From Candidatus Limnocylindrales bacterium (GTDB lineage: Bacteria; Chloroflexota; Limnocylindria; Limnocylindrales; CSP1-4): a stretch of DNA of 64,000 nt. The position numbers were made by a program, and so were the translations under genes. Below the pieces are notes generated by a model. The model saw only the letters and a program-made list of their open reading frames with translations, searched no databases and was not told the origin of the DNA. The stretch lies in assembly GCA_038239115.1 (NCBI GenBank), contig JBBSFD010000015.1:1544-65543 (forward strand), written 5' to 3'. Below are positions 2,409 to 42,759 of this stretch, piece by piece (within the stretch, counting starts at the first letter, position 1; each line of letters opens with the position of its first letter).

Positions 2409-2540
2409 TACGTCTCCACTGGAGCAGGCCGCGATGCTTGGCGTTGCCCGCTAGCCGGAAGACTAGCCGAATCGTTCGGCCAGGTCGCCCGGACGAAGGG
2501 CCTTACCCGTCCGGTCGACCCGCAGGATCGCCCGAACGAA

Positions 2541-4895: not shown

Positions 4896-4921
4896 TTCGT
4901 TGCCGGAATCAGACGCACCAC
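4892..4921 (-). other. Candidate leaderless 9-codon uORF (MVRLIPATK) coupled to the 4895 gene
   Basis: TATAGT (minus strand, 4933-4928), then 6 nt, then GTG at 4921. Its TGA (4894-4892) overlaps the GTG at 4895. Confidence 0.4.
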
Positions 4922-5069
4922 GGCCCGACTATAGCCGACGAATCCCGATGCTCAGACCCTGACTGTTATCGAGAAGCCGGGGGATTATCGGCTACCATTC
5001 CCCAGCCCCCTCCCGTGAAGCGGGCCCGAGTTGGAGTTCCCGTGACCCTGCGTCAAGCATCGCCGTTCG

Positions 5070-6425: not shown

Positions 6426-6438
6426 GCGTGGCTGTCCG

Positions 6439-8396: not shown

Positions 8397-8590
8397 CCTC
8401 GACTGCCCGTCGGTCGGGTCGGTTGGCCAAGGCGTCGACAGGCATGGCGCGGACTATTGTCGGATGACGGGATTCGGGACATCCCTCGTATGCTCTGTCG
8501 ATGCATCGGTTTGGCCGTCACAACCCTGGTCCTGCGTGTCTCGATTGTCGGGACCGAATCTCGGTCGCGCCTGCGGCCCACGGCTAGGCG

Positions 8591-12418: not shown

Positions 12419-13314
12419 TACGAATGAGCATGAACACCCGGCCGATTGATGGAGACACCCAGTCAACGCGCGGACTTCGGTCGATCGCGCGCACCTGGTT
12501 CTGGTTCATCCTGCTCGGGACGATCGTCGGGGTCGGGGCAGCCTTCCTGATCTCGGCTGTGACCCCGGCCACCTACACGGCCAGGGTTTCGCTCCTGATC
12601 ATCCCGTCCAGCCCATCCGGCTCGTCCACGCCGATCACGCCTAGTGACCTGACCGTTTCGCAGGCATTGATTCCGACGTTCGCCGAGCTTGCGACGACCA
12701 CCCCGGTGCTGACCGGGGCGATCACCGCGGCCGCTGCCACCACGAACCCGCAGGCGCTCGCTCAAGCGGTCACGACTCATGTCCCGACCAACACGAACAT
12801 TTTGGACATCAGTGTGTCGGACCGGGATCCGGCCCAGGCGGCGGCCCTTGCGAATGCCATCGCCGACCAGCTCCGGAACTATTCACCGCCTGACAGCAAT
12901 GACGCGTCCGTCGGCTCGCTCGTCCAACTCAGCAAGGTTGATCCGGCCACGCCGCCCACCGTCAAGGACGGGCCAGGCCTCCTGGTCAGGCTCGCCCTCG
13001 GCGGGGCGATCGCGCTGTTTCTGACGGTGAGCATCGCATTCCTCGGTGAGAACCTGTCGCGCGGCCGAGAGCTCATTCGCCGGTCATCCGGCCCAGGGGT
13101 CCAGGCCGACCCTCCAAATCCCGACCCGATCACGCCGCGAGCTGAGCCAGATTCGTCGAGCGGTCCGTATGCCATGCCTGCCTGGTGGCGTCGAGCCCGA
13201 GCTGCCCAGTCCACGCCGCCACCGAACTGGCCCCCCTCCCGCGCCGGCACAGTCAAGCCCGAATCGGCACCGGATCCGCGCGGCTCCGGCGCTCCCCGGG
13301 ACGCCGCTCGCTGA
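12415..13314 (+). CDS. Polysaccharide co-polymerase / chain-length regulator (Wzz/CapA-like, no kinase domain)
   Basis: Two TM segments flanking a soluble loop; PATYTARVSLL, TNILDISVSDRDPAQAAALANA and VDPATPP motifs; Pro-rich tail. Confidence 0.8.
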   Translation: MIRMSMNTRPIDGDTQSTRGLRSIARTWFWFILLGTIVGVGAAFLISAVTPATYTARVSLLIIPSSPSGSSTPITPSDLTVSQALIPTFAELATTTPVLTGAITAAAATTNPQALAQAVTTHVPTNTNILDISVSDRDPAQAAALANAIADQLRNYSPPDSNDASVGSLVQLSKVDPATPPTVKDGPGLLVRLALGGAIALFLTVSIAFLGENLSRGRELIRRSSGPGVQADPPNPDPITPRAEPDSSSGPYAMPAWWRRARAAQSTPPPNWPPSRAGTVKPESAPDPRGSGAPRDAAR

Positions 13315-13348
13315 CCGCGAATCGCCGCGAGGCACCACGGGGACGATC

Positions 13349-14299
13349 GTGCGGGTCCTGATCACCGGGGGAGCCGGTTTCATCGGGCATCATCTGGTTC
13401 GGCGGCTGCTGGATCGAGGCGATCAGGTCGCCGTCCTGGACGACTTCTCGACCGGTCTCGAGTGGCGCCTGGCACCATACCTGGGCCGGATCAGCCTCGT
13501 GCGCGGCAGCGTCCTCGTGCCGGCCGACCTCGACCGCGCGGCGGCGTCCTGCGATGTGATCCTCCACCACGCCGCGCTCGCTTCGGTCGCGCAGTCCCTG
13601 CTCGATCCACTCAGGACGAACGACGTGAACGTCGGCGGGACGATCGAGACGATGCTCGCGGCGCGTCGGCAGGGCGTCCGACGGGTCGTCCTGGCAGGAT
13701 CGTCATCGGTCTACGGCGCCGCTGACGAGCTGCCCTGCCGCGAGAGCCAGCGGGCCACCCCGCAGTCTCCGTACGGCGCGAGCAAGCTGGCCGCCGAACA
13801 CTTCCTGCATGCCCTCGGGGAGCTCCATGGCATCGAGACGGCCGTGCTCCGGTACTTCAACGTCTTCGGGCCGGGACAGGATCCAAGCCAGGAGTATTCG
13901 GCGGTGATCCCGCGCTTCATCACCGCCGTCCTGGCGGGTGATCGGCCCACGATCTACGGAAACGGCCAGATATCCCGTGACTTCATCCACGTTGACGATG
14001 TCGTCCGCGCAAACCTGCTCGCCGCCGATTCGTCGTCGCCGACCGGGATCAGCGTCAACATCGCGAGTGGCACGAGCTTGTCCATCCTCGATCTGCTGGC
14101 TGCAATCAACCACGCTGCGAGCACGAGCCTCGAACCTCGTTTCGAGCCTGCCCGTAGCGGGGACATCGCCCGCTCCGAGGCTGACATCGGGCTGGCCTTG
14201 ACCACGCTCGGCTTCGAGACAGGAATCTCTTTGGCTGATGGCCTTGCGGAAACGGTGGCTTGGTATCGACGCGATCGAGGGTCTGCCCAGCCGCCCTGA
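13349..14299 (+). CDS. NAD-dependent nucleotide-sugar epimerase (UDP-GlcNAc/Glc C4-epimerase-like)
   Basis: TGGAGFIG, SSSVYG, YGASK, LRYFNVFGPGQ and RDFIHVDD motifs. Confidence 0.93.
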   Translation: MRVLITGGAGFIGHHLVRRLLDRGDQVAVLDDFSTGLEWRLAPYLGRISLVRGSVLVPADLDRAAASCDVILHHAALASVAQSLLDPLRTNDVNVGGTIETMLAARRQGVRRVVLAGSSSVYGAADELPCRESQRATPQSPYGASKLAAEHFLHALGELHGIETAVLRYFNVFGPGQDPSQEYSAVIPRFITAVLAGDRPTIYGNGQISRDFIHVDDVVRANLLAADSSSPTGISVNIASGTSLSILDLLAAINHAASTSLEPRFEPARSGDIARSEADIGLALTTLGFETGISLADGLAETVAWYRRDRGSAQPP

Positions 14300-14351
14300 A
14301 CGGGGCCGGCCTCCGCTTTGGTAGGATCGCGCCGCAGCGCGAGCCCTAGCC

Positions 14352-16184
14352 GTGCCCAATTCAAGGCAGGCGCCATTGCCGGGTTTATCGATCTGGATGC
14401 CGGCCGACGGCGAACAGGACGCTCCGTCCCGATTCCGGCGAGCCCTCGGGCTCGAGGTCCGGCCTCCCTCGGGCGAGAGTGTGGTCAATCTCGACGTTGG
14501 CGGCTGCCTCGCCGGCCATGTTGGGTATCCGTCGTACCCGGTCCAGACGTGGCGCAGTCCTGGGATGTTGATCCTGCTCGAGGGCAGGACCTACGGTCGA
14601 TCGGATGACGAGCTGGGTCGAGAGCTCGGGGAGGTCTTCGCGGAGGCGCTCGCCGGCGGCAGCGATTTCGAGAACATCGCCCGGTTCGTAAGGTCGACCG
14701 ACGGCGACTTCCTGGCGGTCGGTATCTCGGCATCCGGTGATCGGATGGTGGCGTTTACGGATGCCCTCGGTCGCCTCCCCGTCTACGTCCATGTCGGTGC
14801 CGCCGGCGTGATCCTGAGTCGCGAATGCAAGGTGATCGGGTCGATCAACGCGACCTGGCAGTTCGATCGGCTCGGGCTTGCCGAGCACTTCTGGGTCGGC
14901 TATCCGTTGGGGGATCGGACCCAATTCGAAGGGATCCGGCGAGCTGGCGAGGGGTTCTGCCTGGAGGCCGATCGGACACCGATCAGCATTGCGACCCGCC
15001 AGGCGTCGACCTACTCGTATCGATGCGACCTGAAGTTGGATCGACGAGACATCGGGGCATCAGCCGCGGACCTCGCGGATCGGCTGGCCGCCGCCGCAGT
15101 CGCCCGCAGCGCTGGACCCGAGGGGACCACGACGGTGGTATCCCTGAGCGGTGGCAGCGACTCGCGCACCCTGCTCGCGGGCCTGCGCGGGTCAAGGTCC
15201 AATGTCGTTGCAGCAACCTTCCAGCGGAACGATGGCGGACAGGCCGAAGACGTGCGCGTTGCAGAGCTGGTCGCTCAATCGCTCGGCGTTCCCTGGCATC
15301 TCCTCAAATTGCCACCGGTCGAACCCGAGGCCGAACAGGATCTGGCCTGGCTGAGGGATGGGCTGAACAGCGTCGAGATGGCCTTTCTCCTGCCCTTCTT
15401 TGAGGAGACCGTGCGCCGCTGGGGTGATTCGGCCATCCTGCTGACCGGCGATGGCGGCGACAAGGTCTTTCCGGACCTTCGGCCGGTCCGTCGGCCGCGG
15501 AACATCGACGACCTGATCGATACGATTCTCGCGGACGCCATGCTGATGAGCACGCGCAGCGTCGAGGTCCTGTTGGGCCTGGAAGCGGGCCGCCTGCGCG
15601 ACGAATTGAGCGGACTCTTGAATTCCTACCCAGAAGAGGCGCTGGAGTACAACGCCGTCAGGTTCCTGATCGCCGAACGCGGTCGAAAGGCCCTGTTCGA
15701 GGGTGAGGACCGAGGACGGTCCTTCCTGTGGCAGGCCACCCCGTTCTACGCCCTACCGGTGTTCGAAGCAGGACTGGCGGTGCCCGACGAGAAGAAGGCC
15801 GACGATCGGTTCTACCTCGAGGTCCAAAGACATCTCGATCCGACCCTCCTGACGCTGCCCCACGCGGACTTCGGAATACCGATCGATTCGGCGCGGTTTC
15901 GTCGCCGCGCCTTCGCCCGGCGTTGGACGCTCCGCGCCGCAGGCCCAGTGGTCCGGCCGCTGCTTAGACGCGTCAGGGCACGAGAGCCCGACCCCGTAGG
16001 CCCCCGGGCGCTGACGCTGGACCTGCTGCGTCAAGCGCTGGCTGCCCAATCGCCACTGGCCGGCATGCTGGACGCGAGCGTCGCGATCGCGACGGTGACC
16101 GGAGCGACAAGCGCCAGGCTCACCGACTGGCGAACCGTGCTCCTGGTTGATCAACTCTGGAGAAGTCGCGTTACCGGCGGCTGA
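14352..16184 (+). CDS. Asparagine-synthase-like ATP-dependent amide ligase (degenerate Ntn domain)
   Basis: DALGRLPVY, SLSGGSDSR and LTGDGGD motifs; no N-terminal Cys. A TTG start at 14376 is possible. Confidence 0.75.
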   Translation: MPNSRQAPLPGLSIWMPADGEQDAPSRFRRALGLEVRPPSGESVVNLDVGGCLAGHVGYPSYPVQTWRSPGMLILLEGRTYGRSDDELGRELGEVFAEALAGGSDFENIARFVRSTDGDFLAVGISASGDRMVAFTDALGRLPVYVHVGAAGVILSRECKVIGSINATWQFDRLGLAEHFWVGYPLGDRTQFEGIRRAGEGFCLEADRTPISIATRQASTYSYRCDLKLDRRDIGASAADLADRLAAAAVARSAGPEGTTTVVSLSGGSDSRTLLAGLRGSRSNVVAATFQRNDGGQAEDVRVAELVAQSLGVPWHLLKLPPVEPEAEQDLAWLRDGLNSVEMAFLLPFFEETVRRWGDSAILLTGDGGDKVFPDLRPVRRPRNIDDLIDTILADAMLMSTRSVEVLLGLEAGRLRDELSGLLNSYPEEALEYNAVRFLIAERGRKALFEGEDRGRSFLWQATPFYALPVFEAGLAVPDEKKADDRFYLEVQRHLDPTLLTLPHADFGIPIDSARFRRRAFARRWTLRAAGPVVRPLLRRVRAREPDPVGPRALTLDLLRQALAAQSPLAGMLDASVAIATVTGATSARLTDWRTVLLVDQLWRSRVTGG

Positions 16185-16196
16185 CGACGGGCTCGA

Positions 16197-17261
16197 TCAT
16201 GAGCCCCGGTGCCCGGCAGCTCTGATGCTTCGGCGCCATCGGAGCACGGACTGAAACCACGCAGAGGGCAGGAACGTGAGCCCAAACAGCCCGAGGGTTG
16301 AGGGCGTCCACGGCGCGCTCCGCAATGACTGAGCGATGTGCGCTCGCGCCATCCGCCTCGACCCGAGGATGAGCTCGGCCGTGCCCACCCACCGATGGGC
16401 ATAGGCGCGCGCCCTGGCGATCTTTTCCGGCTCAAGCGTGATTCGGTCCGAGTCCCGAGCCAGTGCCTCCTCGAGGACTCGCAGATAGCCTTTGGCCATT
16501 GGCAGAGACGTGTGCGTTCCGCTCAGCTTGTCGTCCGTGCCAGTCCGATACCGGACGTCCGGAACGTCAACGAAGGCGACTGGCCCGGCCGCGCACGCGC
16601 GCAGGAAGAACTCGTAGTCCTCACCCATCGAGAACCGTTCATCGAACCGGCCGGTGAGGTCCAATCGCTGGCGACGCATGACGGTCGACGACGCGAGAAC
16701 CAGGTTGCCCATGATCATCGCCGAGAAGACATCGCCAACATACAGACGGCCATCCTCTGACCCGACCGGCACGACGACTCCTTGTCCCGCGAGCGGCGCC
16801 GAGCTCGGAAAGAGCTCGTCCATCGTGAAGTGCCGATATGCGCCAAGGAGCTCTTTCAGGGCAGGCGACAAGACCATCGTGCCGACGGAATCAACGAACG
16901 AAATCTCGGTCCAGATCAAGCCAGCCTCGGGGCGGCGGTCGAGGCACTCCAGCATCAGCTGCAGGTGCCAAGGCTGCCAGGCGTCGTCCGAGTCGAGGAA
17001 CGCGATGTACCCACCCGTCGCCAGGTCGAGTCCGGCGTTTCGAGCCGACGATGCGCCGCGATTGGCTTGGTACGAGTAGCGGACCCGCGGATCGCTCCCG
17101 AACCAGGCTGCCATCGACTCGCGCGTGTCGTCGGTCGAGCCGTCGTCGACGACGATCACCTCGAGGGCGCGATAGGTCTGGTCAAGCACGCTCTGGACCG
17201 CCTCTCGCAGGAGGACGGCCCGATTGAAGGTAGGGATGATGACGCTGACCGTGCCCGACAC
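16197..17261 (-). CDS. Glycosyltransferase family 2
   Basis: VSVIIPTFNR, VVDDGSTD, ARNAG, FLDSDD and EDYEF motifs. Confidence 0.95.
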   Translation of the reverse strand: MSGTVSVIIPTFNRAVLLREAVQSVLDQTYRALEVIVVDDGSTDDTRESMAAWFGSDPRVRYSYQANRGASSARNAGLDLATGGYIAFLDSDDAWQPWHLQLMLECLDRRPEAGLIWTEISFVDSVGTMVLSPALKELLGAYRHFTMDELFPSSAPLAGQGVVVPVGSEDGRLYVGDVFSAMIMGNLVLASSTVMRRQRLDLTGRFDERFSMGEDYEFFLRACAAGPVAFVDVPDVRYRTGTDDKLSGTHTSLPMAKGYLRVLEEALARDSDRITLEPEKIARARAYAHRWVGTAELILGSRRMARAHIAQSLRSAPWTPSTLGLFGLTFLPSAWFQSVLRWRRSIRAAGHRGS

Positions 17262-17446
17262 CAGAACGCGCTCCAGCTGATTGGGCAGCGAAGTATATCG
17301 CGAGGTTTGGCCACGTCCGCAAGGACCAAATCCGTGCCCAAATGGTGCGCGCTGGCAACCTCGAGCCAGCCAAATGGCTGGTCTGGCCGGATGACTATCG
17401 TATGATCCGTGCCGTTATCGACCGGGAAAAACGAGGAACGAATCGA

Positions 17447-17707
17447 GTGAACCAGAGCGCCGACGTGGCGGACCGAATTCGACAGGTGATCCGGGAGCAC
17501 GGGCACCTTCCCGTGGACATCTCGACGCTCGACGACGAGACCGACCTGTTCCAGGCCGGGATGACCTCGCACGCCAGCGTCAACCTGATGCTCGGCCTCG
17601 AGTCCGCGTTCGATGTGGAGTTTCCGGACGCGATGCTCAAGCGGAGCGTCTTCCAGAGCGTCTCGGCAATCAAGGCGGCCCTCGCCCAACTCCAGGTGGC
17701 AGCATGA
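17447..17707 (+). CDS. Carrier protein (ACP-like, amino-acyl carrier type)
   Basis: 86 aa, acidic; DLFQAGMTSHASVNLMLGLE with the phosphopantetheine Ser in a TSH context; GAGGA upstream of the GTG. Confidence 0.9.
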   Translation: MNQSADVADRIRQVIREHGHLPVDISTLDDETDLFQAGMTSHASVNLMLGLESAFDVEFPDAMLKRSVFQSVSAIKAALAQLQVAA

Positions 17708-18873
17708 CCGTAGCCGTTGACCGCGACCAGGCATTCCTGGCCGCGATCCGTCGTATCGCCGGCGAGGTCGCGGCGCCCAGTGCCGATGACGTCGACCGGA
17801 ACGCCCGCTTTCCTTCAGAAACGATCGAGGCCCTGCGGGCCGAGCACGCCATGTCGGCGTTGATTCCCGAGGAATACGGCGGCGAGGAGATCTCGTTCGA
17901 GGCGGTGGCGGCGGCGTGCTTCGAGCTCGGTCGCCGCTGCGGGGCCAGCGCCATGGTCTTCGCCATGCACCAGATCCAGATTGCCTCGATCGTGCGCCAC
18001 CTGAATGGCTCGGCCTGGTTTGAGCAGTACCTGCGCGACGTCTCGCGCGATCAGCGGCTCGTGGCTTCGGTCACCTCCGAGATCGGCACGGGCGGCGACC
18101 TGGGCAAGTCGATCGCGGCGGTCACGCCCGGCGCATACGGCCAGGCGACGTTCGAGAAACAGGCCCCGACGGTGTCCTACGGCGCCTATGCCGACGACCT
18201 GTTGACCACCCTGCGCCGTGCCCCTGAGGCGGAGCCGGGCGACCAGGTCGTCGTCCTGACTCACCGCGAGCAGTTCAACCTAGAGCAAAAGGGCACCTGG
18301 GATCCGATGGGCATGCGCGGGACGTGCTCGCCGGGCTATACCGTCCGGGCCGAGTTCCCCGTCGAACAGGTCCTGCCGACTCCCTTCTCGACGGTCGGCA
18401 CGGAGTCGATGGTGCCGATCTCGCACATCCTGTGGTCGCACCTCTGGCTGGGCATCGCCACCGACGCCTTCGATCGCGCCCGCGCCTTCGTGCGGGCGTC
18501 GGCCAAGGCGCGCCCCGACCAGCTCCCGCCGACCGCCGTCCGGCTGTCCCAGTTGATGAGCGAGCTTTCCCTCCTGCGCGCGGAGGTCAGCACTGGCCTG
18601 CGCGACTTCAGCGACGCATCCGGCGATCGCGAGAGCCTGACCACGATGGCCATGATCCTGCGCTTCAACAACCTCAAGATCGCGGCATCGGAGCAGGCCC
18701 CGCGGGTCTGCCAGGGGGCGATGAACGTGTGCGGAATCGTCGGCTACAAGAACGACACGCCGTTCAGCATCGGACGCCACCTGCGCGACACGATGTCGGC
18801 CTGCCTGATGGTCGCCAACGAGCGGATCCACCAGACGAACGCCAGCCTGCTGCTGATCGCAAAGGACGTCTAA
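17704..18873 (+). CDS. Acyl-CoA/acyl-carrier dehydrogenase
   Basis: DDVDRNARFP, PEEYGG, FAMH, SE.GTGGD and WDPMGMRGTCS motifs; ATGA-coupled to the carrier protein gene. Confidence 0.92.
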   Translation: MTVAVDRDQAFLAAIRRIAGEVAAPSADDVDRNARFPSETIEALRAEHAMSALIPEEYGGEEISFEAVAAACFELGRRCGASAMVFAMHQIQIASIVRHLNGSAWFEQYLRDVSRDQRLVASVTSEIGTGGDLGKSIAAVTPGAYGQATFEKQAPTVSYGAYADDLLTTLRRAPEAEPGDQVVVLTHREQFNLEQKGTWDPMGMRGTCSPGYTVRAEFPVEQVLPTPFSTVGTESMVPISHILWSHLWLGIATDAFDRARAFVRASAKARPDQLPPTAVRLSQLMSELSLLRAEVSTGLRDFSDASGDRESLTTMAMILRFNNLKIAASEQAPRVCQGAMNVCGIVGYKNDTPFSIGRHLRDTMSACLMVANERIHQTNASLLLIAKDV

Positions 18874-19803
18874 ATGGCCAGCTACCGGGCGGCGTCGCCG
18901 TCGCAGGCGGCCTACCTCAGCGACCTCGTCGGTCGCGGCCTGCTGCTCGAGACCGGGGTGCCCGGCATCTACGGGCAGGGGGTCGACTTCGAGCGCGTCC
19001 GCGAGGCATTCACCGCGGCGGTGATGCGGGCGGCCGTCCCGGACCACGCCGAGCCGATGCGCTTCCCGCCCCTCCTGCCCCGCTACCAGATCGAGAAGAA
19101 CGGCTACCTGTCCTCCTTTCCACACCTGGCCGGCAGCGTCTTCTCGTTCACCGGGACGGACGCCGAGGCCCTCGAGCAGGAGGCGCTGGCCGGCCGGCAC
19201 GAGGACTGGAGCGGCTTCCAGACGATGACCGACCTGGTCGTCCTGCCGGCTGCCTGTTACCCGGTGTATCCGGAGATCGCCCGGCGCGGCCCGCTGCCGG
19301 CGTCGGGGGCCACGGTCGATACCGGTAGCTCATGGGTCTTCCGCAACGAGGCCTCGGGCGATCCCGCCCGGCTCCAGATGTTCCACATGCTCGAGTTCGT
19401 GCGGATCGCCGACCCGGCCGATGTCGGCACGTTCCGTGACGAATGGCTCGAGCGCACGGTGGCCCTCTTCCAGCGGGTCGGCCTGGACGCGACGTCGGAG
19501 ATCGCGTCGGATCCGTTCTTCGGCCGGGCGGGCCGGATGCTCGCGGCCAACCAGCGCTCGCAGGAGCTGAAGTTCGAGCTGGTGGCCATGGTTGGCGGCC
19601 CGGAGCCCACCGCCATCGCCTCGTTCAACTACCACCAGGACCACTTCACCCAGATCTACGAGATCGAGCTGGAGGGTGGCCGGGTCGCCCACACCGGCTG
19701 CGTCGCCTTCGGCCTCGAGCGGATCACCCTTGCCCTGTTCCGGGCCCACGGCCTGACCCTTGACGCCTGGCCGGCCGAGGTGCGCTCAGAGCTCTGGCCA
19801 TGA
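18874..19803 (+). CDS. Amino acid--[carrier protein] ligase (truncated atypical SerRS homolog)
   Basis: YLSSFPHL, PAACYPVY, motif-2 FRNE..DPARLQMFHMLEFV, SFNYH and HTGCVAFGLER (motif 3, Zn-binding Cys); no tRNA-binding domain. Confidence 0.92.
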   Translation: MASYRAASPSQAAYLSDLVGRGLLLETGVPGIYGQGVDFERVREAFTAAVMRAAVPDHAEPMRFPPLLPRYQIEKNGYLSSFPHLAGSVFSFTGTDAEALEQEALAGRHEDWSGFQTMTDLVVLPAACYPVYPEIARRGPLPASGATVDTGSSWVFRNEASGDPARLQMFHMLEFVRIADPADVGTFRDEWLERTVALFQRVGLDATSEIASDPFFGRAGRMLAANQRSQELKFELVAMVGGPEPTAIASFNYHQDHFTQIYEIELEGGRVAHTGCVAFGLERITLALFRAHGLTLDAWPAEVRSELWP

Positions 19804-20774
19804 GCTCGGACCTGCCCGGCATGGTCAGCCTGTTCGGGCTCGATCCGGCGACCTACACGCCGCACCGCCTGCACGCCGGTGAACGCACCTACATCGAGAC
19901 CGATTGCTTCACCGACATCGTGATCGAGCTGCTCCATGCCCGCGGCGACGAACCCGTGGCCACGTTCGGCTCCTTCGTGCGGATGGGCTTCGAGAACGAT
20001 CAATGGACGTTCTTCAAGCCACTTGCGATCGATCTCGAGCTCCTGTTCGGGGTCGACATCCACGAGGTCCAGCCGTACCGCTCCATCCCGGCCCAGGTGG
20101 CCGAGGTGCTCGCCCTGGGCCGGACGATGACGATCGAGCTCGACGCCTGGTACCTGCCCGACACGGCCGCCACGAGCTACGGCCAGGCCCACGTCAAGAC
20201 CGGCGTCATTGCCGAGTCGATCGACCTGGCCGGGCAGCGCTTCCAGTACTTCCATAATGCCTCGATGTACGGGCTCGAGGGCGCGGACTTTCGGGGCGCC
20301 TTCCGGCTGGGCGACGACTGGTCGGGCGATGTCCTGCCGCCGTACACCGAGCTGATCCGCTTCGATGCAGGCCCGCGCCTGGCCGGCGAGGAGCTGCGGG
20401 CCGCCGCTCGGGGCATTCTTCGGGGCCATCTCGATCGAATGGTTCCAGGCAATCCATTCGACGGCTTCACGGCACGCCTGGTCGCGGACCTGCCCGCGCT
20501 CCTGGAAGGCGACGCGGCCCTCTACCACGCCTTTACGTTCGCCACGTTCCGCATGGCCGGCGCCGGCTTCGAGCTCCTGGCCTCGCACGTTGAATGGCTC
20601 CTGGGCGCCAACGGCGATCGTTCCGTCGCGGCCATGGCCCGGATCGTCGACGGCTGCAAGATGCTCGGCTTCAAGCTGGCTCGCCGCCGGATGTTCGATC
20701 CAACGGAGCCGATGAGCGGCCTGAGCCAGGCCTGGGCCGAGGCGATGGAATCGCTCGACGACGCACTAGGCTAG
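19800..20774 (+). CDS. DUF1839 family protein
   Basis: ETDCFTD, FENDQWTFFKP, ELDAWYLPDT..TSY..HVKT, YFHNA and LPPYTE motifs; usual position downstream of aa:CP ligases. Confidence 0.85.
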   Translation: MSSDLPGMVSLFGLDPATYTPHRLHAGERTYIETDCFTDIVIELLHARGDEPVATFGSFVRMGFENDQWTFFKPLAIDLELLFGVDIHEVQPYRSIPAQVAEVLALGRTMTIELDAWYLPDTAATSYGQAHVKTGVIAESIDLAGQRFQYFHNASMYGLEGADFRGAFRLGDDWSGDVLPPYTELIRFDAGPRLAGEELRAAARGILRGHLDRMVPGNPFDGFTARLVADLPALLEGDAALYHAFTFATFRMAGAGFELLASHVEWLLGANGDRSVAAMARIVDGCKMLGFKLARRRMFDPTEPMSGLSQAWAEAMESLDDALG

Positions 20775-20778
20775 GGCC

Positions 20779-23397
20779 ATGCGCCAGGCCCTCACTTTGG
20801 CCATGACCCCAGCTCGCGCCCGCGTCGGCAGCTACGACCTGCTTCCCCTTGATTCTGACTGGGAGGTCGCGTCTGCCCCACCCGATGCCGTGCTGGCGGC
20901 CGACCAGCTGAATAACCTCGACTGGATCCCGGCCCAGGTCCCGGGCACCGCAGCCGGCGCATTGCGCGAGGCCGGCCGCCCCGTGGCCGACCTTGACGCC
21001 CTGGATTGGTGGTTCCGGACGACCTTCGAGACTTCCCCGCCGGCGGCCGGCGAGGAGATCCGGCTGTGCCTCGCCGGCATCGCGACCACCGCCGAGGTCT
21101 TCCTCAACGGCGAGCCGATCGCCGCCAGCGAATCGATGTTCGCCAGCCAGGCCGTCGACGTGGGCGGGCAGCTTCGGGCGACGAACCAGCTCACGATCCG
21201 CTGCCGGGCGATCACGCCCCAACTGGCCGTGCAGCGCTCCCCGCGCGCTCGCTGGCGGACGCGTCTGGTCGCCGACAACAGCCTGCGCTGGTTCCGGGCG
21301 ATGCTCCTCGGCCGGGTTCCGGGCTTCTCGCCCGGGCCGCCGGCCGTCGGCCCGTGGCGGCCGATCTGGCTCGAGCGGCGAGCGGTCCTGGCCGTCGATG
21401 CCCTCGAGCTGCGAACCCGCCTCGACGGCGAGGACGGCATCCTGACCGTCCACGCCCGCCTGCGGGGCCTGGACGGGCCGGTTCGCGGACCGATCGTGCT
21501 CCAGCTCGATGGCCCATCCGGGCAGCATCTGGTCGCCCTTGAAGCGCGGGCCGAGGGCCTCGACACCACGGCCGATGGCCAGCTCCGCATCCCGGGCGTC
21601 GCCCGCTGGTGGCCGCACACCCACGGCCAGCCCACGCTCCACGACGTTCGCCTCCAGGTCGGCCCCGATGGCGCCGGGTCGCAGATCGAGGCGGGCCGGG
21701 TTGGCTTCCGCGACCTGGCGCCGGGTTCCACGGCCGACCACGACATCGAGCGTGACGGGCTGTTCGTCCACGTCAACGGTATCCCCGTCTTCGCTCGAGG
21801 CGCGTTGTGGACGCCCCTCGACATCGCCGGCCTGGCTCCATCGGAGGCTGACCTCCGACAGGCGATCGAGACGGTCCGCGCCGCCGGCATGAACATGCTT
21901 CGCCTGCCCGGCTTCGGCGCCTACGAACAGAAGGCGTTCCACGACCTGTGCGACGAGCTCGGGGTCATGGTCTGGCAGGACCTGATGTACATGAGCATGG
22001 ATTACCCGTTCGCCGACGAGGGTTTTGGTCAACTCGCGCGGGCCGAGGTTGGCCAGCTCCTGTCCGAGCTCGGCGGCCGGCCCAGCCTGGTCGTCATCTG
22101 CGGCAACAGCGAGGTCGAGCAGCAGGTTGCCATGCTCGGCCTCGATCTCGCCCTGGCCCGCATCCCGTTCTTCGATCGCGTGGTGCCGGACATGATCGAG
22201 GCCGCGAGCGTCGACGCGGTCTACGTGCCGTCCGCGCCGTTCGGGGGCGACCTGCCGATGCGTCCGGACCGGGGCGTGACCGGTTACTACGGCGTCGGCG
22301 GCTATCGGGCTCCACTGTCCGATGCCCGGACGAGCGGCGTCCTGTTTGCGGCAGAATGCCTGGCCTTTGCCAATGTGCCCGATGACGAGGCGCTGGCGAG
22401 CCTCGTCCCGGAGCCCCCGTACGAGCCGTTCGTTCACAACCCGCGCTGGAAGGCCGGCGTCGCCCGCGACGCCGGGGCGGGTTGGGACTTCGATGACCTG
22501 CGCGACTACTACTTCGAGCTGCTCTATCGGATCGACCCGCAGATCCTGCGGCGGGGCAATCCGGACCGCTACCTGGAGCTTTCCCGGGCGGTCACCGGCG
22601 AGGTAATGGAGCTGGTCTATGGCGAATGGCGCCGGGCCGGCTCGCCATCGGGCGGCGGGCTGATCCTGTGGTTGCGTGACGTGGACCCGGGCGCCGGCTG
22701 GGGCGTGGTCGACAATCTCGGCCGGCCGAAGGCCGCCTATCACCACCTGCGCCGAATCCTGGCCCCGACCGCGGTATGGCTCGTCGATGAGGGGATCGGC
22801 GGGGTCATCGCCCATGTCGCCAACGATGGCCCGAACCCGCTGACGGCCCGCCTGCGGATCGGCCTGTACAGCGACCTGGAGCTGCCGGTTGGCGTGGCCG
22901 AAGAGGAGGTCAACGTGCCGGCCCACGGCACGATCCAGCGGGACGTCGAGTCGGTCATTGGCCACTTCGTCGACGCTGCCTGGGCCTATCGCTTCGGACC
23001 GCCGGCCCAGGATGCGATCGTGGCCAGCCTCGAGGGCAGTCACGAGGGCACGGGTGACTCCGGGTCAGCCGGGCTGCTGTCGCAGGCCTTCCACTTCCCT
23101 GCCGGGCGCCCCCTGAATCCCGAGCCGGCGCAGCGCCTGGGGCTGGCGGGCGTGGCCGGCCAGGACGCGGATGGGAGCGTGACCATGGCGATCACGAGCA
23201 GGCGCCTGGCCTACGGCGTCCGGATCCATGTGGCCGGCTATGCCCCGAGCGACGACGCCTTCTCGATCGAGCCCGGCACGACCCGCACGATCCGGCTGTT
23301 TCCGACCGACCCTGGCCAATCGTTCTCGGGTGGCTGGTTGACGGCGCTCAACCTGGTCGGACGCGTCGTCATTCGCCCGCTGGAGCCGGTTTCGTGA
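20779..23397 (+). CDS. Glycoside hydrolase family 2 (beta-mannosidase-like)
   Basis: PAQVPGT, WWPHTHGQPTL, FARGALW, GMNMLR, CDELGVMVWQD and CGNSE (acid/base); FAAEC (nucleophile region). Confidence 0.88.
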   Translation: MRQALTLAMTPARARVGSYDLLPLDSDWEVASAPPDAVLAADQLNNLDWIPAQVPGTAAGALREAGRPVADLDALDWWFRTTFETSPPAAGEEIRLCLAGIATTAEVFLNGEPIAASESMFASQAVDVGGQLRATNQLTIRCRAITPQLAVQRSPRARWRTRLVADNSLRWFRAMLLGRVPGFSPGPPAVGPWRPIWLERRAVLAVDALELRTRLDGEDGILTVHARLRGLDGPVRGPIVLQLDGPSGQHLVALEARAEGLDTTADGQLRIPGVARWWPHTHGQPTLHDVRLQVGPDGAGSQIEAGRVGFRDLAPGSTADHDIERDGLFVHVNGIPVFARGALWTPLDIAGLAPSEADLRQAIETVRAAGMNMLRLPGFGAYEQKAFHDLCDELGVMVWQDLMYMSMDYPFADEGFGQLARAEVGQLLSELGGRPSLVVICGNSEVEQQVAMLGLDLALARIPFFDRVVPDMIEAASVDAVYVPSAPFGGDLPMRPDRGVTGYYGVGGYRAPLSDARTSGVLFAAECLAFANVPDDEALASLVPEPPYEPFVHNPRWKAGVARDAGAGWDFDDLRDYYFELLYRIDPQILRRGNPDRYLELSRAVTGEVMELVYGEWRRAGSPSGGGLILWLRDVDPGAGWGVVDNLGRPKAAYHHLRRILAPTAVWLVDEGIGGVIAHVANDGPNPLTARLRIGLYSDLELPVGVAEEEVNVPAHGTIQRDVESVIGHFVDAAWAYRFGPPAQDAIVASLEGSHEGTGDSGSAGLLSQAFHFPAGRPLNPEPAQRLGLAGVAGQDADGSVTMAITSRRLAYGVRIHVAGYAPSDDAFSIEPGTTRTIRLFPTDPGQSFSGGWLTALNLVGRVVIRPLEPVS

Positions 23398-25172
23398 TCG
23401 GCGCTCCGCCCCTGGCTCGCCCGGTCTACCTCGAGAACGGCAATGGGCCGGTCTTCGGGATGTTCCATGCCGCGGCCGGTGGCAGCCAGTCGTCCACCGC
23501 CGTGCTGATGTGCGGGCCATGGGGCTGGGACGAGGTCGCCTCGTATCGGAGCCGGCGGGCTTGGGCGGACTTCCTGTCGGAGCGCGGGCACCCCGTGCTC
23601 CGGATCGACCTGCCCGGCACGGGTGACAGCGGCGGCTCGCCGCACGAGCCGGACCTCGTCGGGAGCTGGACCCGGGCGATCGCCGCGGCCGCGAGCTGGC
23701 TGGCCGCGCAACCCGGTGTCGCGAGGGTCGCCGTGATCGGCCTCGGCCTGGGCGGCTTGCTGGCGGCCGCTTCGATCGGGGACGGCGTCCCGATCCATGA
23801 CCTGGTCCTGTGGGCGGCACCGAGCACCGGCCGGGCGTTCAGCCGCGAACAGCGGGCGTTCGCGGCCCTCCAAGGCACCCGGCTCGATGCGGCCGAACAT
23901 GCAGGGCCGGGCCCGGAGCCGGCCGGACTCGAGGTCGGCGGATTCCTCCTGTCAACGGATACCGCGGCCGCCCTTGGCCGGCTCGAGCTCGGCGCCATGG
24001 CCCGCGGCCGGCTCGACCGGGTCCTGCTCCTCGATCGGGATGGCATGGCCGTCGATGGCCCCGTCCGGGCACACCTGGAACACCTCGGCGTCGACCTGAC
24101 CGTCGCCTCGGGACGTGGCTGGACCGACATGGTCTTCCATCCCGAGCAGTACGCTCCGCCGCTCGACGTCTTCGCCGAGGTCGAAGACTGGTTGGCCCTG
24201 GCCCCGGTCGGCCTGACCAGGGAGGCAGCCGTCAACCTCATCGAGGCCGCGGATCACGCCGAGTTGCCCGATGGCCGGGCACGGATCCGCGAGACTCCGG
24301 TCCGGATCGATCAGCCGTTCGGCCAGATCTTCGGGGTCCTGGCGGAGCCGGTCGACCTCGCCCGATCAACGGCCTGCGCCATCTTCCTGAACGCCGGCGC
24401 CGTTCGCCGCACCGGGCCGAATCGGCTGTGGGTCGAGGCATCCCGGCGTTGGGCAGCGGCCGGCATGCCCGTCATCCGGATGGACCTCGAAGGGATCGGC
24501 GAGGCCGATGGGGATCCAGCCCGCTACCGGGACGTCGGCAATTTCTATACTGCGGAGTTCGGAGCCCAGGTGCCGGCGATCCTCGACGTCCTCGAAGCCC
24601 GCGGCCTGGGCCCACGCTTCGTCCTGGTCGGCCTTTGTGCCGGAGCCTATTGGGCGTTCAACACCGGCGCCCAGGATCGGCGGGTCGTCGAGGCGATCAT
24701 CGTCAATCCGCGGGCCATGGTCTGGGACCTGGAGCTGCTGACTCGGCGCGAGGCACGCAAGGTGAAGCGCCTGCGCCAGCCGGACCTGTGGCGCCGCCTC
24801 CTGCGAGGCGACGTCACGGGCGCGCGCATCCTGGAGGTATCAAGGGCGCTGGCGGCCACGGCCGCCCGCACGGTGGTGCGCGCCCCGGCTCGACTCCACA
24901 AGGGCCGCTCCAGCCCGGTCGAGGACCCCGCCATCACCCGACTGGACAGCCTGCGGGACCATGGGACCCGGGTCGTCCTGGCCTTCTCGGGCCTCGAGCC
25001 CGTCTACGACGAGCTCGCCGCGGACGGGATCCTGGATCAGCTGGGTCGTTGGCCGAACGTCGTCCTGGAGGAGCTGCCGGGGTCGGATCACACGTTGCGG
25101 CCCCTGGTCGCCCAGCGGGCCTTGCACGCGCTGCTCGAGCGCGAGCTCGACGCGCTCGTCGCTGCCGGCTAG
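23394..25172 (+). CDS. Tandem (two-domain) alpha/beta hydrolase
   Basis: Domain 1 has LRIDLPGTGDS and GLGLGG. Domain 2 has RMDLEGIGEA, GLCAGA and a C-terminal DH. Confidence 0.8.
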   Translation: MIGAPPLARPVYLENGNGPVFGMFHAAAGGSQSSTAVLMCGPWGWDEVASYRSRRAWADFLSERGHPVLRIDLPGTGDSGGSPHEPDLVGSWTRAIAAAASWLAAQPGVARVAVIGLGLGGLLAAASIGDGVPIHDLVLWAAPSTGRAFSREQRAFAALQGTRLDAAEHAGPGPEPAGLEVGGFLLSTDTAAALGRLELGAMARGRLDRVLLLDRDGMAVDGPVRAHLEHLGVDLTVASGRGWTDMVFHPEQYAPPLDVFAEVEDWLALAPVGLTREAAVNLIEAADHAELPDGRARIRETPVRIDQPFGQIFGVLAEPVDLARSTACAIFLNAGAVRRTGPNRLWVEASRRWAAAGMPVIRMDLEGIGEADGDPARYRDVGNFYTAEFGAQVPAILDVLEARGLGPRFVLVGLCAGAYWAFNTGAQDRRVVEAIIVNPRAMVWDLELLTRREARKVKRLRQPDLWRRLLRGDVTGARILEVSRALAATAARTVVRAPARLHKGRSSPVEDPAITRLDSLRDHGTRVVLAFSGLEPVYDELAADGILDQLGRWPNVVLEELPGSDHTLRPLVAQRALHALLERELDALVAAG

Positions 25173-25873
25173 GACGGATCATCGGGCCGAGCGTCGAGCC
25201 GGGCCGACAGCCAGGCCTGGACCGCGGCCAGGCTCTCGTCCGTGGTCGTATGGCCTATGGCGAACTCGGCGTAGTCAACGCTCAGCCCGAGCCTGCGCAG
25301 CATGGTCGCCGAACTCCGACCGGCCGCGACCCCAATCTCGCTGTCGGCCGTGCCATGGACGATCAGGACCGGCTTTCCGGCTGGCTGGTCGTCCGGGGCC
25401 AGAGCCTGCATGACTTCCGGCACGATCTCCGGCGGAAGCCAGCCGCTCATGGAGACGGCGCCTGCGATCCGCTCTGGGGCGACCAGGATCAGGCCCAGGG
25501 CGATGATCCCGCCCTGGCTGAAACCCGCCACGAACACCCGTTCCGGGTCGGCCGCGTACGTCGCGACCGCCTCGTCAACGAAGGTGATCGCCCGCGTCGA
25601 CGCTGCCTCGACCTCGCTCGGGTCGACGGCCGGTCCGCTTGGCGTGCGGGCGATCGAGTACCAGCCGAAGGCGTACGGCCTGAGCTCGATCGGTGAGCGA
25701 GCACTGATGACGATGAAGCGTGGATCGAAGCCGGCCGCGAGGGCGGCCATGGCCAGCTCGTTGCCGCCGACGCCGTGGAGCAGGATCAGCAGCGGCGGCC
25801 GCCCGGACCCGACGGGAGCCAGGGCGGCTGGGCGAACCCGGTGGACGAGCGAGAGCGGGTGGCGGCTGCCCAT
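25169..25873 (-). CDS. Phospholipase/carboxylesterase (alpha/beta hydrolase)
   Basis: LLHGVGGNE, GFSQG, HGTAD and GH motifs. Likely leaderless start: TATGAT, 7 nt, then ATG at 25873. Confidence 0.9.
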   Translation of the reverse strand: MGSRHPLSLVHRVRPAALAPVGSGRPPLLILLHGVGGNELAMAALAAGFDPRFIVISARSPIELRPYAFGWYSIARTPSGPAVDPSEVEAASTRAITFVDEAVATYAADPERVFVAGFSQGGIIALGLILVAPERIAGAVSMSGWLPPEIVPEVMQALAPDDQPAGKPVLIVHGTADSEIGVAAGRSSATMLRRLGLSVDYAEFAIGHTTTDESLAAVQAWLSARLDARPDDPS

Positions 25874-26322
25874 CGAGGCGATCATATCGATCGCTTGCGA
25901 CGCGCAGGGATCGGCCGCTGACCGTGGGGGGTGGTGCCCTGCCTGGGACCCCGGTGCCGTGGTGCCCCGAGGCACCAGATCCGGGCTCGATTTTACCCAG
26001 AGGTACTAGTCCCCGGCATCCAGATGACCTATCGTTGGTGGTCCTGAAGGGTCGGCGTTTTCCGAGTCATCCTCGACCCTTCGGCAGACGCGATGTCAGG
26101 GCTTTCGGGTGTGGCGCGTCCCCGGAAGCAAGGTCAGTCGCGAGTCGTCCGGGAACATCTTCTACGCGTCACTGGTCGCAACGTCGTATGTCGTAGCGAT
26201 CTCTGTGCCCGGGGATTCTCTTGACTGGTCGTATCTCTCGCTTGCCGGTTCGCCTTGTCGATGCTGTCCATCGCACGCCGCGATCTGAGTCCGGGTCAGC
26301 GCCTGCGCTTCCCGATGGCGCC

Positions 26323-28308
<1,986 letters not shown>

Positions 28309-28374: not shown

Positions 28375-29697
28375 ATGACCAGCGATACCCGCGTGGCAGT
28401 CATCGGCCTCGGCTACACGGGCCTGCCGCTCGCGATCTCTTTCGTCGAGGCCGGCCACCAGGTTGAAGGGATCGATGCCTTTGCCGGCCGGGTGGCCGAG
28501 CTGAACGCCCGGACCTCGCCGATCGACGATGTCTCCGATGAGCGCCTGGGCGCGGCCCTCGATTCCGGGCTGCGGGTCGTTGTACCGACCGAGGCGACCC
28601 TGGCCGAGGCCGACGCGATCTTCGTGTGCGTTCCCACCCCGATCACGACTACCAAGGACCCGGACCTCGGACCCGTCCTGGCGGCGGCTGACTTCATTCG
28701 GGAGCACCTCCGGGCCGGCCAGCTGATCATTCTCCAGTCGACCACGTTCCCGGGGACCACGACCGGCTCGTTTCGCGAGGCGATCGAGCGTGGCGGCCTC
28801 GTCGCCGGCCGTGACTTCGACCTGGCCTATGCCCCCGAACGGGTGAATCCGGGCGACCCGGCCAGCGCCGCGCGGGGCGTGCCCCGGCTGGTCGGCGCGA
28901 CCACCACCGCTGCCACCCGGCGAGCGGCGGCGCTCCTGGCGAAGATCAACGACCGGGTGGTCGAGATGACCTCACCCGATGCGGCCGAGCTGGCCAAGCT
29001 CCTCGAGAACGTCTTTCGCAACATCAACATCGCATTCGTGAACCAGCTCGCCCTGCTGTGCGAGCGGATGGGCCTCGATGTCTGGGAAGTGATCGATGCC
29101 GCCGCAACCAAGCCCTTTGGCTTCATGCGCTTCACCCCAGGCCCAGGCGTGGGCGGCCACTGCATTCCGGTCGATCCCTATTACCTGTCGTGGCGCGCGC
29201 GCGAGTTCGATTTCATCGACCGCTTCATCGAGACCGCGGCGGACATCAATTTCGCGATGCCGCGGCACGTGGTCGACCTCGTGGCCGAGGCGCTCAATGA
29301 GCGCAGCCTGGCCCTGAAGGGGGCCAAGGTCGGGGTTCTCGGGGTGGCCTTCAAGGCCAATGTGCAGGACGCTCGAAACTCGCCGGCGGCCGACGTGATC
29401 GCCGGCCTGGCCGGTCGCGGCGGCGATGTCCGCTATCACGACCCGCACGTTGCCAGCTTTCGGGACGGCCAGGGCGAGGTGCGCCCGAGCACCGACCTCG
29501 AAGACCTCCTTGAGTGGGCCGACGTGGTCGTGGTCGTGACCGCCCATCGGGCGATCGACTGGGCGCGCGTCTACGAGCGAGCCAGCCTGGTCGTCGATAC
29601 GGTCGACAGCTCGAGAGGCCACCAGGTCCGGCCGCGCCAGGTCCTGCGCCTGGGCGCCGGCTGGGGCACGGCCGCTTCAGCCGCGATCGCGAGCTGA
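28375..29697 (+). CDS. Nucleotide-sugar (UDP-HexNAc) 6-dehydrogenase, WbpA/WecC family
   Basis: GLGYTGLP, CVPTP, PERVNPG, KLLEN.FR..NIA and GPGVGGHCIPVDP motifs. Confidence 0.95.
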   Translation: MTSDTRVAVIGLGYTGLPLAISFVEAGHQVEGIDAFAGRVAELNARTSPIDDVSDERLGAALDSGLRVVVPTEATLAEADAIFVCVPTPITTTKDPDLGPVLAAADFIREHLRAGQLIILQSTTFPGTTTGSFREAIERGGLVAGRDFDLAYAPERVNPGDPASAARGVPRLVGATTTAATRRAAALLAKINDRVVEMTSPDAAELAKLLENVFRNINIAFVNQLALLCERMGLDVWEVIDAAATKPFGFMRFTPGPGVGGHCIPVDPYYLSWRAREFDFIDRFIETAADINFAMPRHVVDLVAEALNERSLALKGAKVGVLGVAFKANVQDARNSPAADVIAGLAGRGGDVRYHDPHVASFRDGQGEVRPSTDLEDLLEWADVVVVVTAHRAIDWARVYERASLVVDTVDSSRGHQVRPRQVLRLGAGWGTAASAAIAS

Positions 29698-42688: not shown

Positions 42689-42759
42689 ATGCAATCTCAG
42701 TCCGCGCCGAGATGACCCGGCCGGGAGCTTACCGGCCCACTCGGCATCAGCGCGAATGA
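42689..42759 (+). other. Two chained candidate uORFs (MQSQSAPR 42689-42715; MTRPGAYRPTRHQRE 42712-42759)
   Basis: The first ATG lies 7 nt after the -10 box. Each stop overlaps the next start as ATGA, ending at murT. Confidence 0.4.

Follow-up and report, generated by a model that had tools for sequence, protein, structure and literature searches.

What happens to a small amino acid once it has been loaded onto a carrier protein by a relative of the seryl-tRNA synthetases? The role of the enzymes that do this, known as amino acid:[carrier protein] ligases (aa:CP ligases), has been a question since 2010. It is raised again by a 64,000-nucleotide stretch of DNA from contig JBBSFD010000015.1 of an uncultured Candidatus Limnocylindrales bacterium, here called the window, which means the whole stretch at its full length. 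At 17447-25172 of its forward strand there are six genes, for a carrier protein, a flavoenzyme with the fold of the acyl-CoA dehydrogenases (ACADs), an aa:CP ligase, a DUF1839 protein, a glycoside hydrolase of family 2 (GH2) and a fused double alpha/beta hydrolase. With confidence a little above even, this cassette is read here as a module that works in the cytoplasm and depends on a carrier protein to tailor a surface glycan.

A first-pass annotation, made from the letters of the DNA, had described six tightly coupled genes. The listing of open reading frames (ORFs) and the family scans bear this out, with all six at the given coordinates on the plus strand (Table 1). Of the five junctions, the first, third and fifth are overlaps of 4 bases; at the second the genes abut, and the fourth leaves 4 bases between them. 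Because every gene overlaps the next, abuts it or lies 4 bases from it, the tight coupling is real, and the six genes are one translationally coupled operon. It opens with a GTG start, preceded by a GAGGAA Shine-Dalgarno sequence. A simple hydropathy scan gives no transmembrane-like segments in the six proteins, which leads us to expect their chemistry on the cytoplasmic side.

Is this arrangement peculiar to one genome? When one genome per species was scanned, a relative of the ligase turned out to be encoded in 518 stretches. The best 80 were studied, with up to 10 kb of flank on each side. Fifteen of these loci are shorter than 15 kb, cut by contig ends, and the 65 loci of at least 15 kb were used for counts of gene order. 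Searched by tblastn with the window proteins, the 80 loci yield the ligase 80 times, the carrier protein and the ACAD-fold enzyme 72 times each, DUF1839 69 times, and GH2 and each hydrolase half 66 times. All six families are present in 48 of the 65 longer loci. In 44 of them, from Chloroflexota and Actinomycetota, the order carrier, ACAD-fold enzyme, ligase, DUF1839, GH2, hydrolase is exactly that of the window. Since the same six families recur in the same order this often, the arrangement is not chance.

The ligase has a class II aminoacyl-tRNA synthetase (aaRS) core of SerRS type, without the tRNA-binding domain; it covers just positions 310-498 or 342-503 of archaeal-type SerRS models that are 518 positions long. 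Against the PDB entries of Bradyrhizobium Bll0957, 3mey and 4h2w, the E values are 7e-72 and 3e-74, the former with ligase residues 19-305 on Bll0957 residues 43-328. C128, E159 and C276 align with a Cys, a Glu and a Cys of Bll0957 that we take to be its zinc ligands, and they are invariant in 25 relatives. The segments around them, PAACYPVYP, HTGCVAFG and DPFFGR, are the same in both proteins. The carrier protein, of family NF005480, is encoded two genes upstream in the same operon, and also gives a weak match to DltC (E 1.3e-4).

Together, these sequence comparisons support a genuine aa:CP ligase that has a carrier protein of its own as partner. The first-pass annotation had claimed as much, and its claim stands: the scores for NF005479 and NF005480 are above their cut-offs, and the Bll0957 match agrees. 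The match to Bll0957 in and around the zinc site makes a small amino acid the likely substrate, Gly or Ala most of all.

A carrier protein also needs its phosphopantetheine arm. A gene for an AcpS-type phosphopantetheinyl transferase (PPTase) adjoins the carrier gene in 48 of the 80 related loci, and there is none in the window. In the genome, a 3.45-Mb assembly of 155 contigs that is 92.65% complete, PPTase genes occur twice on other contigs; the copy on contig C55 is 45-56% identical to the cassette-linked PPTases. As this cassette-type AcpS gene sits on a different contig, the carrier would have to be primed in trans.

The flavoenzyme had been labelled an acyl-CoA dehydrogenase. This label is doubtful, and with it the earlier idea that the enzyme oxidises the amino acid on the carrier: the canonical catalytic Glu is absent and the C-terminal domains stay below cut-off. 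In a hand alignment the protein reads LMVANE at the position of YEGT, which we take to be the Glu-bearing motif of the ACADs. The same alignment gives no Glu at what is presumably the alternative, the IVD-type position. Its NCBIfam and PDB matches mix true dehydrogenases with the ACAD-fold oxygenases SfnB, DszC, HsaA, KijD3, DnmZ and MsuC. Its likeness to ACAD-fold monooxygenases is about as great as that to true dehydrogenases, and it is described here as a putative oxidase, monooxygenase or dehydrogenase. A note in PMC2922099, from 2010, likewise guessed monooxygenation. Whatever its reaction, this is the most conserved protein of the cassette, with 60-95% identity for cassette copies across the 80 loci. 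A flavin reductase was considered as its partner and dropped as evidence: 11 Chloroflexota loci have one 1-4.5 kb downstream, there is none in the window, and in one locus (L011) it stands beside a gene for an HpaB hydroxylase.

The DUF1839 protein is where a transfer step can be placed. A diverse alignment of 74 family members led to an AlphaFold2 model with a mean pLDDT of 96.1. Foldseek ranks AziU3, CcbD and CtaG first (E 2e-8 to 3e-5). VIA-align gives Z 19.4 for CcbD in complex with its carrier domain, with a root-mean-square deviation of 3.4 Å over 282 residues, then Z 18.2 for AziU3 and Z 17.0 for CtaG. Between 264 and 282 residues are aligned across the three, and the next, unrelated rows reach Z 7.8 at most. 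Within the 74 diverse relatives, C36 is kept in at least 90%, and D115, D121, H131 and H152 are invariant. On the strength of the model, the protein is a predicted Cys-dependent transacylase, or amide synthase.

The enzymes of this fold give an idea of what such a protein might do. CcbD and LmbD use a Cys-His-Glu triad to move a carrier-tethered proline to the Cys and from there to the amine of an amino-octose (PMC12945683). CtaG has been described as a papain-like, amide-bond-forming ligase (PMC12865890). For DUF1839 itself, a papain-like fold with a C-(T/S)-H arrangement has been reported, together with the suggestion of acyl-CoA-dependent glycan processing at the cell wall (PMC10318531, 2023).

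The last gene of the operon encodes two hydrolase domains in one chain. TIGR03101 scores 67.1 bits on the N-terminal half, against a cut-off of 202.75, and TIGR03100 scores 84.3 bits on the C-terminal half, against 168.45. The two halves differ in their nucleophile. At that position the N-terminal half has Gly118 in 56 of 59 orthologues, and the C-terminal half has Cys415, in the motif GLC[SA]G, in all 59; His566 is likewise found in 59 of 59. Nine distant stand-alone relatives of the C-terminal half, at 28-35% identity, keep both the Cys and the His. Seven of them were scanned, with TIGR03100 as best family, below cut-off, and none of these stand-alone relatives is named exosortase-associated by a source. 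An AlphaFold2 model of the fusion (pLDDT 89) retrieves just generic esterases and thioesterases in Foldseek. A Cys nucleophile suits thioester exchange but may also serve hydrolysis.

Some loci carry a reduced cassette. In nine of them (L023, L027, L029, L034, L035, L037, L049, L055 and L075) carrier, ligase and hydrolase fusion are present without DUF1839 and GH2, and Cys415 and His566 are kept there too. Five of these (L027, L029, L035, L049 and L075) add a second ACAD-fold gene, an ATP-grasp gene and an alpha/beta-hydrolase-like gene before the carrier. Of all the partners of the ligase and carrier, the hydrolase fusion is the most constant.

Over its catalytic barrel the GH2 protein can be aligned with beta-mannosidases: PDB entries 6bye and 6byc match at E 4.5e-47 and 4.8e-47, and 2vjx spans residues 68-669. 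Its acid/base residue, Glu445, aligns with the acid/base Glu of the Xanthomonas enzyme, which is Ala in the 6byi sequence. Glu526 lies in FAAE, which we take to resemble the nucleophile motif. S444, E445 and E526 are each conserved in at least 97% of 47 orthologues. Ser444 stands where the NE motif of clan GH-A has Asn, so the substrate specificity may differ from that of a beta-mannosidase. No signal peptide or transmembrane segment is evident in this protein, and no hydropathy window reaches 1.6.

The neighbours of the operon point to a glycan. Window positions 1-32447 are, by a Pfam scan of the ORFs, a surface-polysaccharide locus. The first-pass annotation had placed the operon inside a Wzx/Wzy locus, and two GT4 glycosyltransferases (GTs), a GT2, Wzx, Wzy, CapD, DegT and a UDP-sugar dehydrogenase are indeed there. 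It had also proposed that neighbourhood statistics be gathered for such ligases across phyla. Genes in the 80 loci were called from codon usage by a program that had been trained on the genes of the cassette and that reproduced the gene set expected for the window. The 804 flanking proteins were then clustered, and representatives of the 30 commonest clusters were scanned against Pfam.

The glycan families in these flanks, counted in loci out of 80, are GT4 (29), polysaccharide deacetylase (15), a second GT4-like family (11), epimerase (10), CapD-like (10), Wzy, GT2 and CpsB (8 each), and Wzx and Bac_transf (5 each). Other families recur as well, namely subtilase (25), S-adenosylmethionine (SAM) methyltransferase (24), DAO oxidoreductase (13) and BKACE (11). 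Within 10 kb of the cassette, at least one polysaccharide-type gene is found in 52 of the 65 longer loci and at least two in 40; CapD-like genes are that close in 11.

A whole-genome control was made with PF00534, the GT1 family, in 10 genomes that have the cassette on large contigs, where the mapping of contigs to records was assumed. Among the matches listed, the numbers within 20 kb of the ligase are, per genome, 3, 2, 3, 4, 2, 4, 2, 3, 0 and 3. These 26 listed matches compare with about 3.2 expected from each genome's own density, an enrichment that overstates independence because the genomes are kin and GT genes cluster; at least two matches are found in 9 of the 10. GT genes are thus enriched near the ligase in relatives, as the first-pass annotation would have it. 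The association of the cassette with glycan-assembly genes is real, but not universal.

How might the parts work together? By homology, the ligase would activate a small amino acid with ATP and thioesterify the phosphopantetheine arm of the 86-residue carrier. Beyond the loading of the carrier, we infer each chemical step. The ACAD-fold flavoenzyme may modify the tethered aminoacyl group; because the usual ACAD base is absent, N-oxidation or monooxygenation is as likely as dehydrogenation. The conserved Cys36 of DUF1839 would take over the acyl group. An amino sugar would then receive it at its free amine as an amide, the kind of reaction that CcbD and LmbD carry out when lincosamides are made. 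As acceptor, a nucleotide- or lipid-linked precursor of the Wzx/Wzy polymer is probable, for example a 4-amino sugar that the CapD-like dehydratase and the DegT aminotransferase would make, the two together being a possible source of it. The Cys-nucleophile alpha/beta domain with its nucleophile-less partner could be a second thioester-handling enzyme, either a transacylase or an editing thioesterase. GH2 would be competent in catalysis and act on the sugar part as a glycosidase or transglycosidase.

Several points weigh against this reading. No recognisable polysaccharide gene lies within 10 kb in 13 of the 65 loci, and a reduced variant, L049, has no GT1-family match within 20 kb among the matches listed. 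The control genomes consist of two Chloroflexota and eight Actinomycetota, with many Solirubrobacterales in the related set, and their GT genes cluster. A DegT-type aminotransferase is near the cassette in just 1 of the 80 loci by tblastn, so that a 4-amino-sugar acceptor is specific to this locus at best. CcbD, AziU3 and CtaG all serve small-molecule antibiotic pathways, not glycan pathways. The single DUF1839 sequence has no PDB match at E of 1 or below that would link it to them, and a profile of the 74 sequences has no relevant match among PDB sequences at E of 10 or below. With no detectable homology in sequence, DUF1839 is not filed as a member of the CcbD/LmbD/CtaG type, but just as a protein that may work like one. 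The roles given to GH2 and the hydrolase fusion are guesses. The acceptor may be another glycoconjugate or a small molecule instead of the Wzx/Wzy polymer. Finally, no experimental product of the cassette was found in the literature, and a 2022 review (PMC9437257) still calls the biological role of aa:CP ligases unknown.

Of the other explanations, the best survivor, though an unlikely one, gives delivery to the glycan to the hydrolase fusion, a task that relatives of the exosortase-A-associated hydrolase pair may have. DUF1839 would then act earlier, perhaps by joining a second unit on the carrier in the manner of CtaG, one of its fold matches at Z 17. That the fusion stays with the ligase and carrier where DUF1839 and GH2 are gone speaks for this, and so do the invariant Cys415 and His566, retained even in distant stand-alone relatives. 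TIGR03100 and TIGR03101 are also its best family matches, but the scores are far below cut-off (84 against 168 and 67 against 203) and no exosortase (PF09721) is matched in the genome, at 92.65% completeness. The generic esterases and thioesterases returned by Foldseek make an editing thioesterase equally possible.

More doubtful still is a diffusible product: the cassette would make a small glyco-metabolite of lincosamide-like logic, namely an aminoacylated amino sugar, and would lie near glycan genes just through shared sugar precursors. The closest folds to DUF1839 do come from antibiotic pathways, the six genes do move as a self-contained unit across phyla and onto plasmids, and 13 of the 65 loci have no recognisable polysaccharide neighbours, while genes for subtilases (25 loci), SAM methyltransferases (24) and DAO oxidoreductases (13) keep returning. 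Yet the GT enrichment around the ligase is strong, the operon of the window lies inside a Wzx/Wzy locus, and the 30 commonest annotated flank clusters include no exporter, regulator or self-resistance gene.

Least probable of all is a target elsewhere in the envelope, for example peptidoglycan, a polymer resembling teichoic acid, a glycolipid or the glycan of a protein: flanking glycan genes vary among relatives around a constant cassette, its G+C is typical of the genome where that of the upstream glycan genes is lower, polysaccharide deacetylase genes are nearby in 15 of 80 loci, and the Mycetohabitans copy has a gene of the lipoteichoic acid (LTA) synthase family and an ArnT gene close by, but nothing in the window indicates a specific alternative target and the nearest neighbours on both sides are glycan-assembly genes.

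Tailoring of the surface glycan itself stays the preferred reading. It also has a more daring version, which we consider improbable as it stands. Here Cys36 of DUF1839 and Cys415 of the alpha/beta hydrolase would form a two-Cys relay. In the cytoplasm, this relay would equip an amino sugar within a glycan precursor with a flavin-oxidised small aminoacyl group, for example an N-hydroxylated or oxo derivative of glycyl or alanyl. GH2, with its Ser in place of the clan GH-A Asn, would be a transglycosidase on a 2-substituted sugar. If true, this would be glycan tailoring chemistry without a characterised example, and a first biological role for aa:CP ligases.

The idea that such a cassette aminoacylates a glycan is not new. 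In a note added in proof (Biol Direct 2010, PMC2922099), a SerRS paralogue is linked to an acyl carrier protein, a monooxygenase or dehydrogenase, Atu2574, a glycosidase and 'liposaccharide' biosynthesis genes. From these gene neighbourhoods the note predicted that an amino acid is ligated to a cell-surface amino sugar, with the DUF1839 protein forming the amide. The glycan context of DUF1839 was likewise described in 2023 (PMC10318531). The cassette of the window is another example, in an uncultured Chloroflexota-type genome, of a widespread published cassette, and the interpretation restates a published prediction. As that prediction was reached independently from neighbourhoods, it counts in favour of glycan tailoring. 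Both the neighbourhood statistics and the fold of DUF1839 lend support to the glycan interpretation, which is a reasonable one.

Comparison with known systems shows what is shared and what is not. The clusters of Bradyrhizobium Bll0957 and Agrobacterium Atu2573-Atu2574 have the same ligase family, a paired carrier, a redox enzyme, DUF1839 and a glycosidase. The host of the window differs in being an uncultured Chloroflexota-type metagenome-assembled genome, with the operon in a Wzx/Wzy locus and no adjacent PPTase. With CcbD and LmbD the likeness is in the predicted fold of DUF1839 and, presumably, in the route from aminoacyl-S-carrier to active-site Cys to amino-sugar amine. The identity to DUF1839 is just 11-13%, with no sequence or profile match. 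CcbD is moreover fed by an A domain and peptidyl carrier protein of nonribosomal peptide synthetase type and makes an antibiotic, whereas here the loader is aaRS-like and the context is glycan assembly.

By analogy only, the cassette also resembles the systems that decorate envelope glycoconjugates with a small amino acid, loaded on a small carrier by a free-standing ligase. Dlt (DltA/DltC) D-alanylates teichoic acids, and AlmEFG adds glycine to lipid A. Their ligases are adenylation enzymes of ANL type, and their transferases, the MBOAT protein DltB and AlmG, are membrane proteins. In contrast, the ligase of the window is aaRS-like and the six cassette proteins look soluble. There is no MBOAT family among the Pfam matches of ORFs at 1-32 kb, where an Acyl_transf_3 protein is the sole membrane acyltransferase. 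The hydrolase pair 1 and 2 of the exosortase-A (PEP-CTERM) exopolysaccharide loci is a further parallel, since TIGR03100 and TIGR03101 are the best families for the two halves of the fusion. In those loci these hydrolases presumably sit beside a ligase and a carrier protein. The differences are the scores far below cut-off, the fusion of the halves, a genome with no exosortase match, and a ligase that is aaRS-like, not AMP-ligase-like.

How far the cassette has spread bears on another earlier claim, that it apparently lies outside Proteobacteria. This is right for the window, but annotation also puts the cassette on plasmids of Rhizobium, Azospirillum, Burkholderia and Mycetohabitans. The six genes are annotated in the same order on a Rhizobium plasmid, where a GT4 gene is inserted and another GT4 flanks the cassette, and on a Mycetohabitans megaplasmid. 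DUF1839 genes occur on 65 plasmid records of Proteobacteria, and the window protein is 33-40% identical to the proteobacterial plasmid copies listed. Within the phylum of the window the ligase is patchy. It was found in 9 of 301 sampled genomes, this one included, and in 3 of 15 others of the same family. In two genomes of the same genus (G004 and G007, loci L004-L009), the ligase match is broken up over adjacent frames, 2 in one and 4 in the other, through assembly frameshifts or decay. Metagenome proteins in which the ligase is fused to DUF1839, or DUF1839 to GH2, were not used, as a one-base assembly error could fuse genes that overlap by 4 bases.

Table 1 Position, strand and family evidence of the operon genes and of neighbouring features in the window.
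Feature	Position	Strand	Evidence or remark
DegT aminotransferase	1263-2408		PF01041 E 3e-112
GT2 glycosyltransferase, divergent	16197-17261	-	PF00535 E 1.8e-34
Intergenic region, presumed operon promoter region	17262-17446		Between divergent GT2 gene and carrier-protein gene
Carrier protein, 86 aa	17447-17707	+	PF00550 E 3e-6; NF005480 104.6 bits, cut-off 72
ACAD-fold flavoenzyme, 389 aa	17704-18873	+	Acyl-CoA_dh_N E 5e-14; C-terminal domains weak, below Pfam cut-offs
Amino acid:[carrier protein] ligase, 309 aa	18874-19803	+	NF005479 381.1 bits, cut-off 357
DUF1839 protein, 324 aa	19800-20774	+	PF08893 268.2 bits, cut-off 22.5; covers 2-312 of the 313 profile positions
GH2 beta-mannosidase-like protein, 872 aa	20779-23397	+	Pfam: N-terminal and Ig-like domains of GH2
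Fused double alpha/beta hydrolase, 592 aa	23394-25172	+	TIGR03101-like N half, TIGR03100-like C half, both below cut-off
Abhydrolase_2 esterase-like gene, convergent	25169-25975	-	PF02230 E 3e-22; end overlaps operon end by 4 bases
CapD/PglF-like membrane-anchored sugar 4,6-dehydratase	26221-28308	+	PF02719 E 2.6e-103
UDP-sugar dehydrogenase	28375-29697		Downstream of CapD-like gene

The immediate neighbours in Table 1 are those that had been described, GT2 on one side and the CapD-like and UDP-sugar dehydrogenase genes on the other, except that the Abhydrolase_2 gene between the operon and CapD had been missed. Its relatives adjoin the cassette in 13 of the 80 loci, mostly in Chloroflexota, which makes it a lineage-specific neighbour. 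No riboswitch, which would name the amino acid, was found by Rfam in 16000-26500; the sole match, at E 0.81, is chance. A promoter and terminator scan gave nothing beyond shuffles and no sigma-70-like site, though a sigma-70 search is uninformative for this phylum.

Further upstream the polysaccharide locus holds two GT4 genes, DegT, a GINT1_N-like protein, Wzx, a FemAB-like GNAT, the Acyl_transf_3 protein, Wzy, a Wzz-like protein, an epimerase, an AsnB-like amidotransferase and the GT2. Downstream it holds the CapD-like dehydratase, the UDP-sugar dehydrogenase and a GH25 muramidase, and after the locus come genes of purine catabolism. The G+C content of the upstream glycan genes (window 1-17000) is 63-67%, with third-position values of 0.74-0.89. 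It is 69-72%, with third-position values of 0.85-0.93, in the operon and the remaining window (18000-64000). The cassette looks native, with a G+C that is typical of the genome, and the adjoining glycan genes look variable. The nearest named relatives of the genome are uncultured Chloroflexota labelled Limnocylindrales or Chloroflexia.

Some genes of the locus deserve a separate remark. The FemAB-like GNAT (Acetyltransf_6, 7380-8396, minus strand) and the AsnB-like amidotransferase (14352-16184, plus strand), which weakly matches the XrtA/PEP-CTERM amidotransferase TIGR03108, are further candidates for amino-acid or amide tailoring. The GINT1_N-like protein (3354-4895, minus strand; PF24793, E 1.6e-40) has relatives directly beside the cassette in 6 of the 80 loci (L011-L014, L025 and L044). 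Two well-supported ORFs on the minus strand, 2541-3353 and 6439-7383 (270 and 314 aa), match no Pfam family at E of 0.001 or below.

Outside the polysaccharide locus, a 950-aa ORF at 39149-42001 (plus strand) has both Uricase domains and a complete malate synthase, with N, TIM-barrel and C domains. It looks like purine breakdown fused to glyoxylate use, and stands beside xanthine-dehydrogenase-type genes and amidohydrolases. At 42756-44952 (plus strand) there are adjacent genes for a MurT-like ligase and a GatD-like amidotransferase; in Gram-positive bacteria the MurT/GatD pair amidates the peptidoglycan stem peptide.

What is new here are the GT enrichment figures and CcbD as a named structural precedent for the transfer step. 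To these can be added a warning that the 'dehydrogenase' may not dehydrogenate, the retention of both catalytic Glu residues in GH2, and a conserved hydrolase domain with a Cys nucleophile, joined to a half that has none, as another candidate for the transferase. Among cultured bacteria, the identical cassette is found on plasmids of Rhizobium and Azospirillum and in Patulibacter minatonensis DSM 18081 (L041). If confirmed, the cassette would represent a third kind of loader for envelope aminoacylation, beside the tRNA-dependent and the ANL-type systems.

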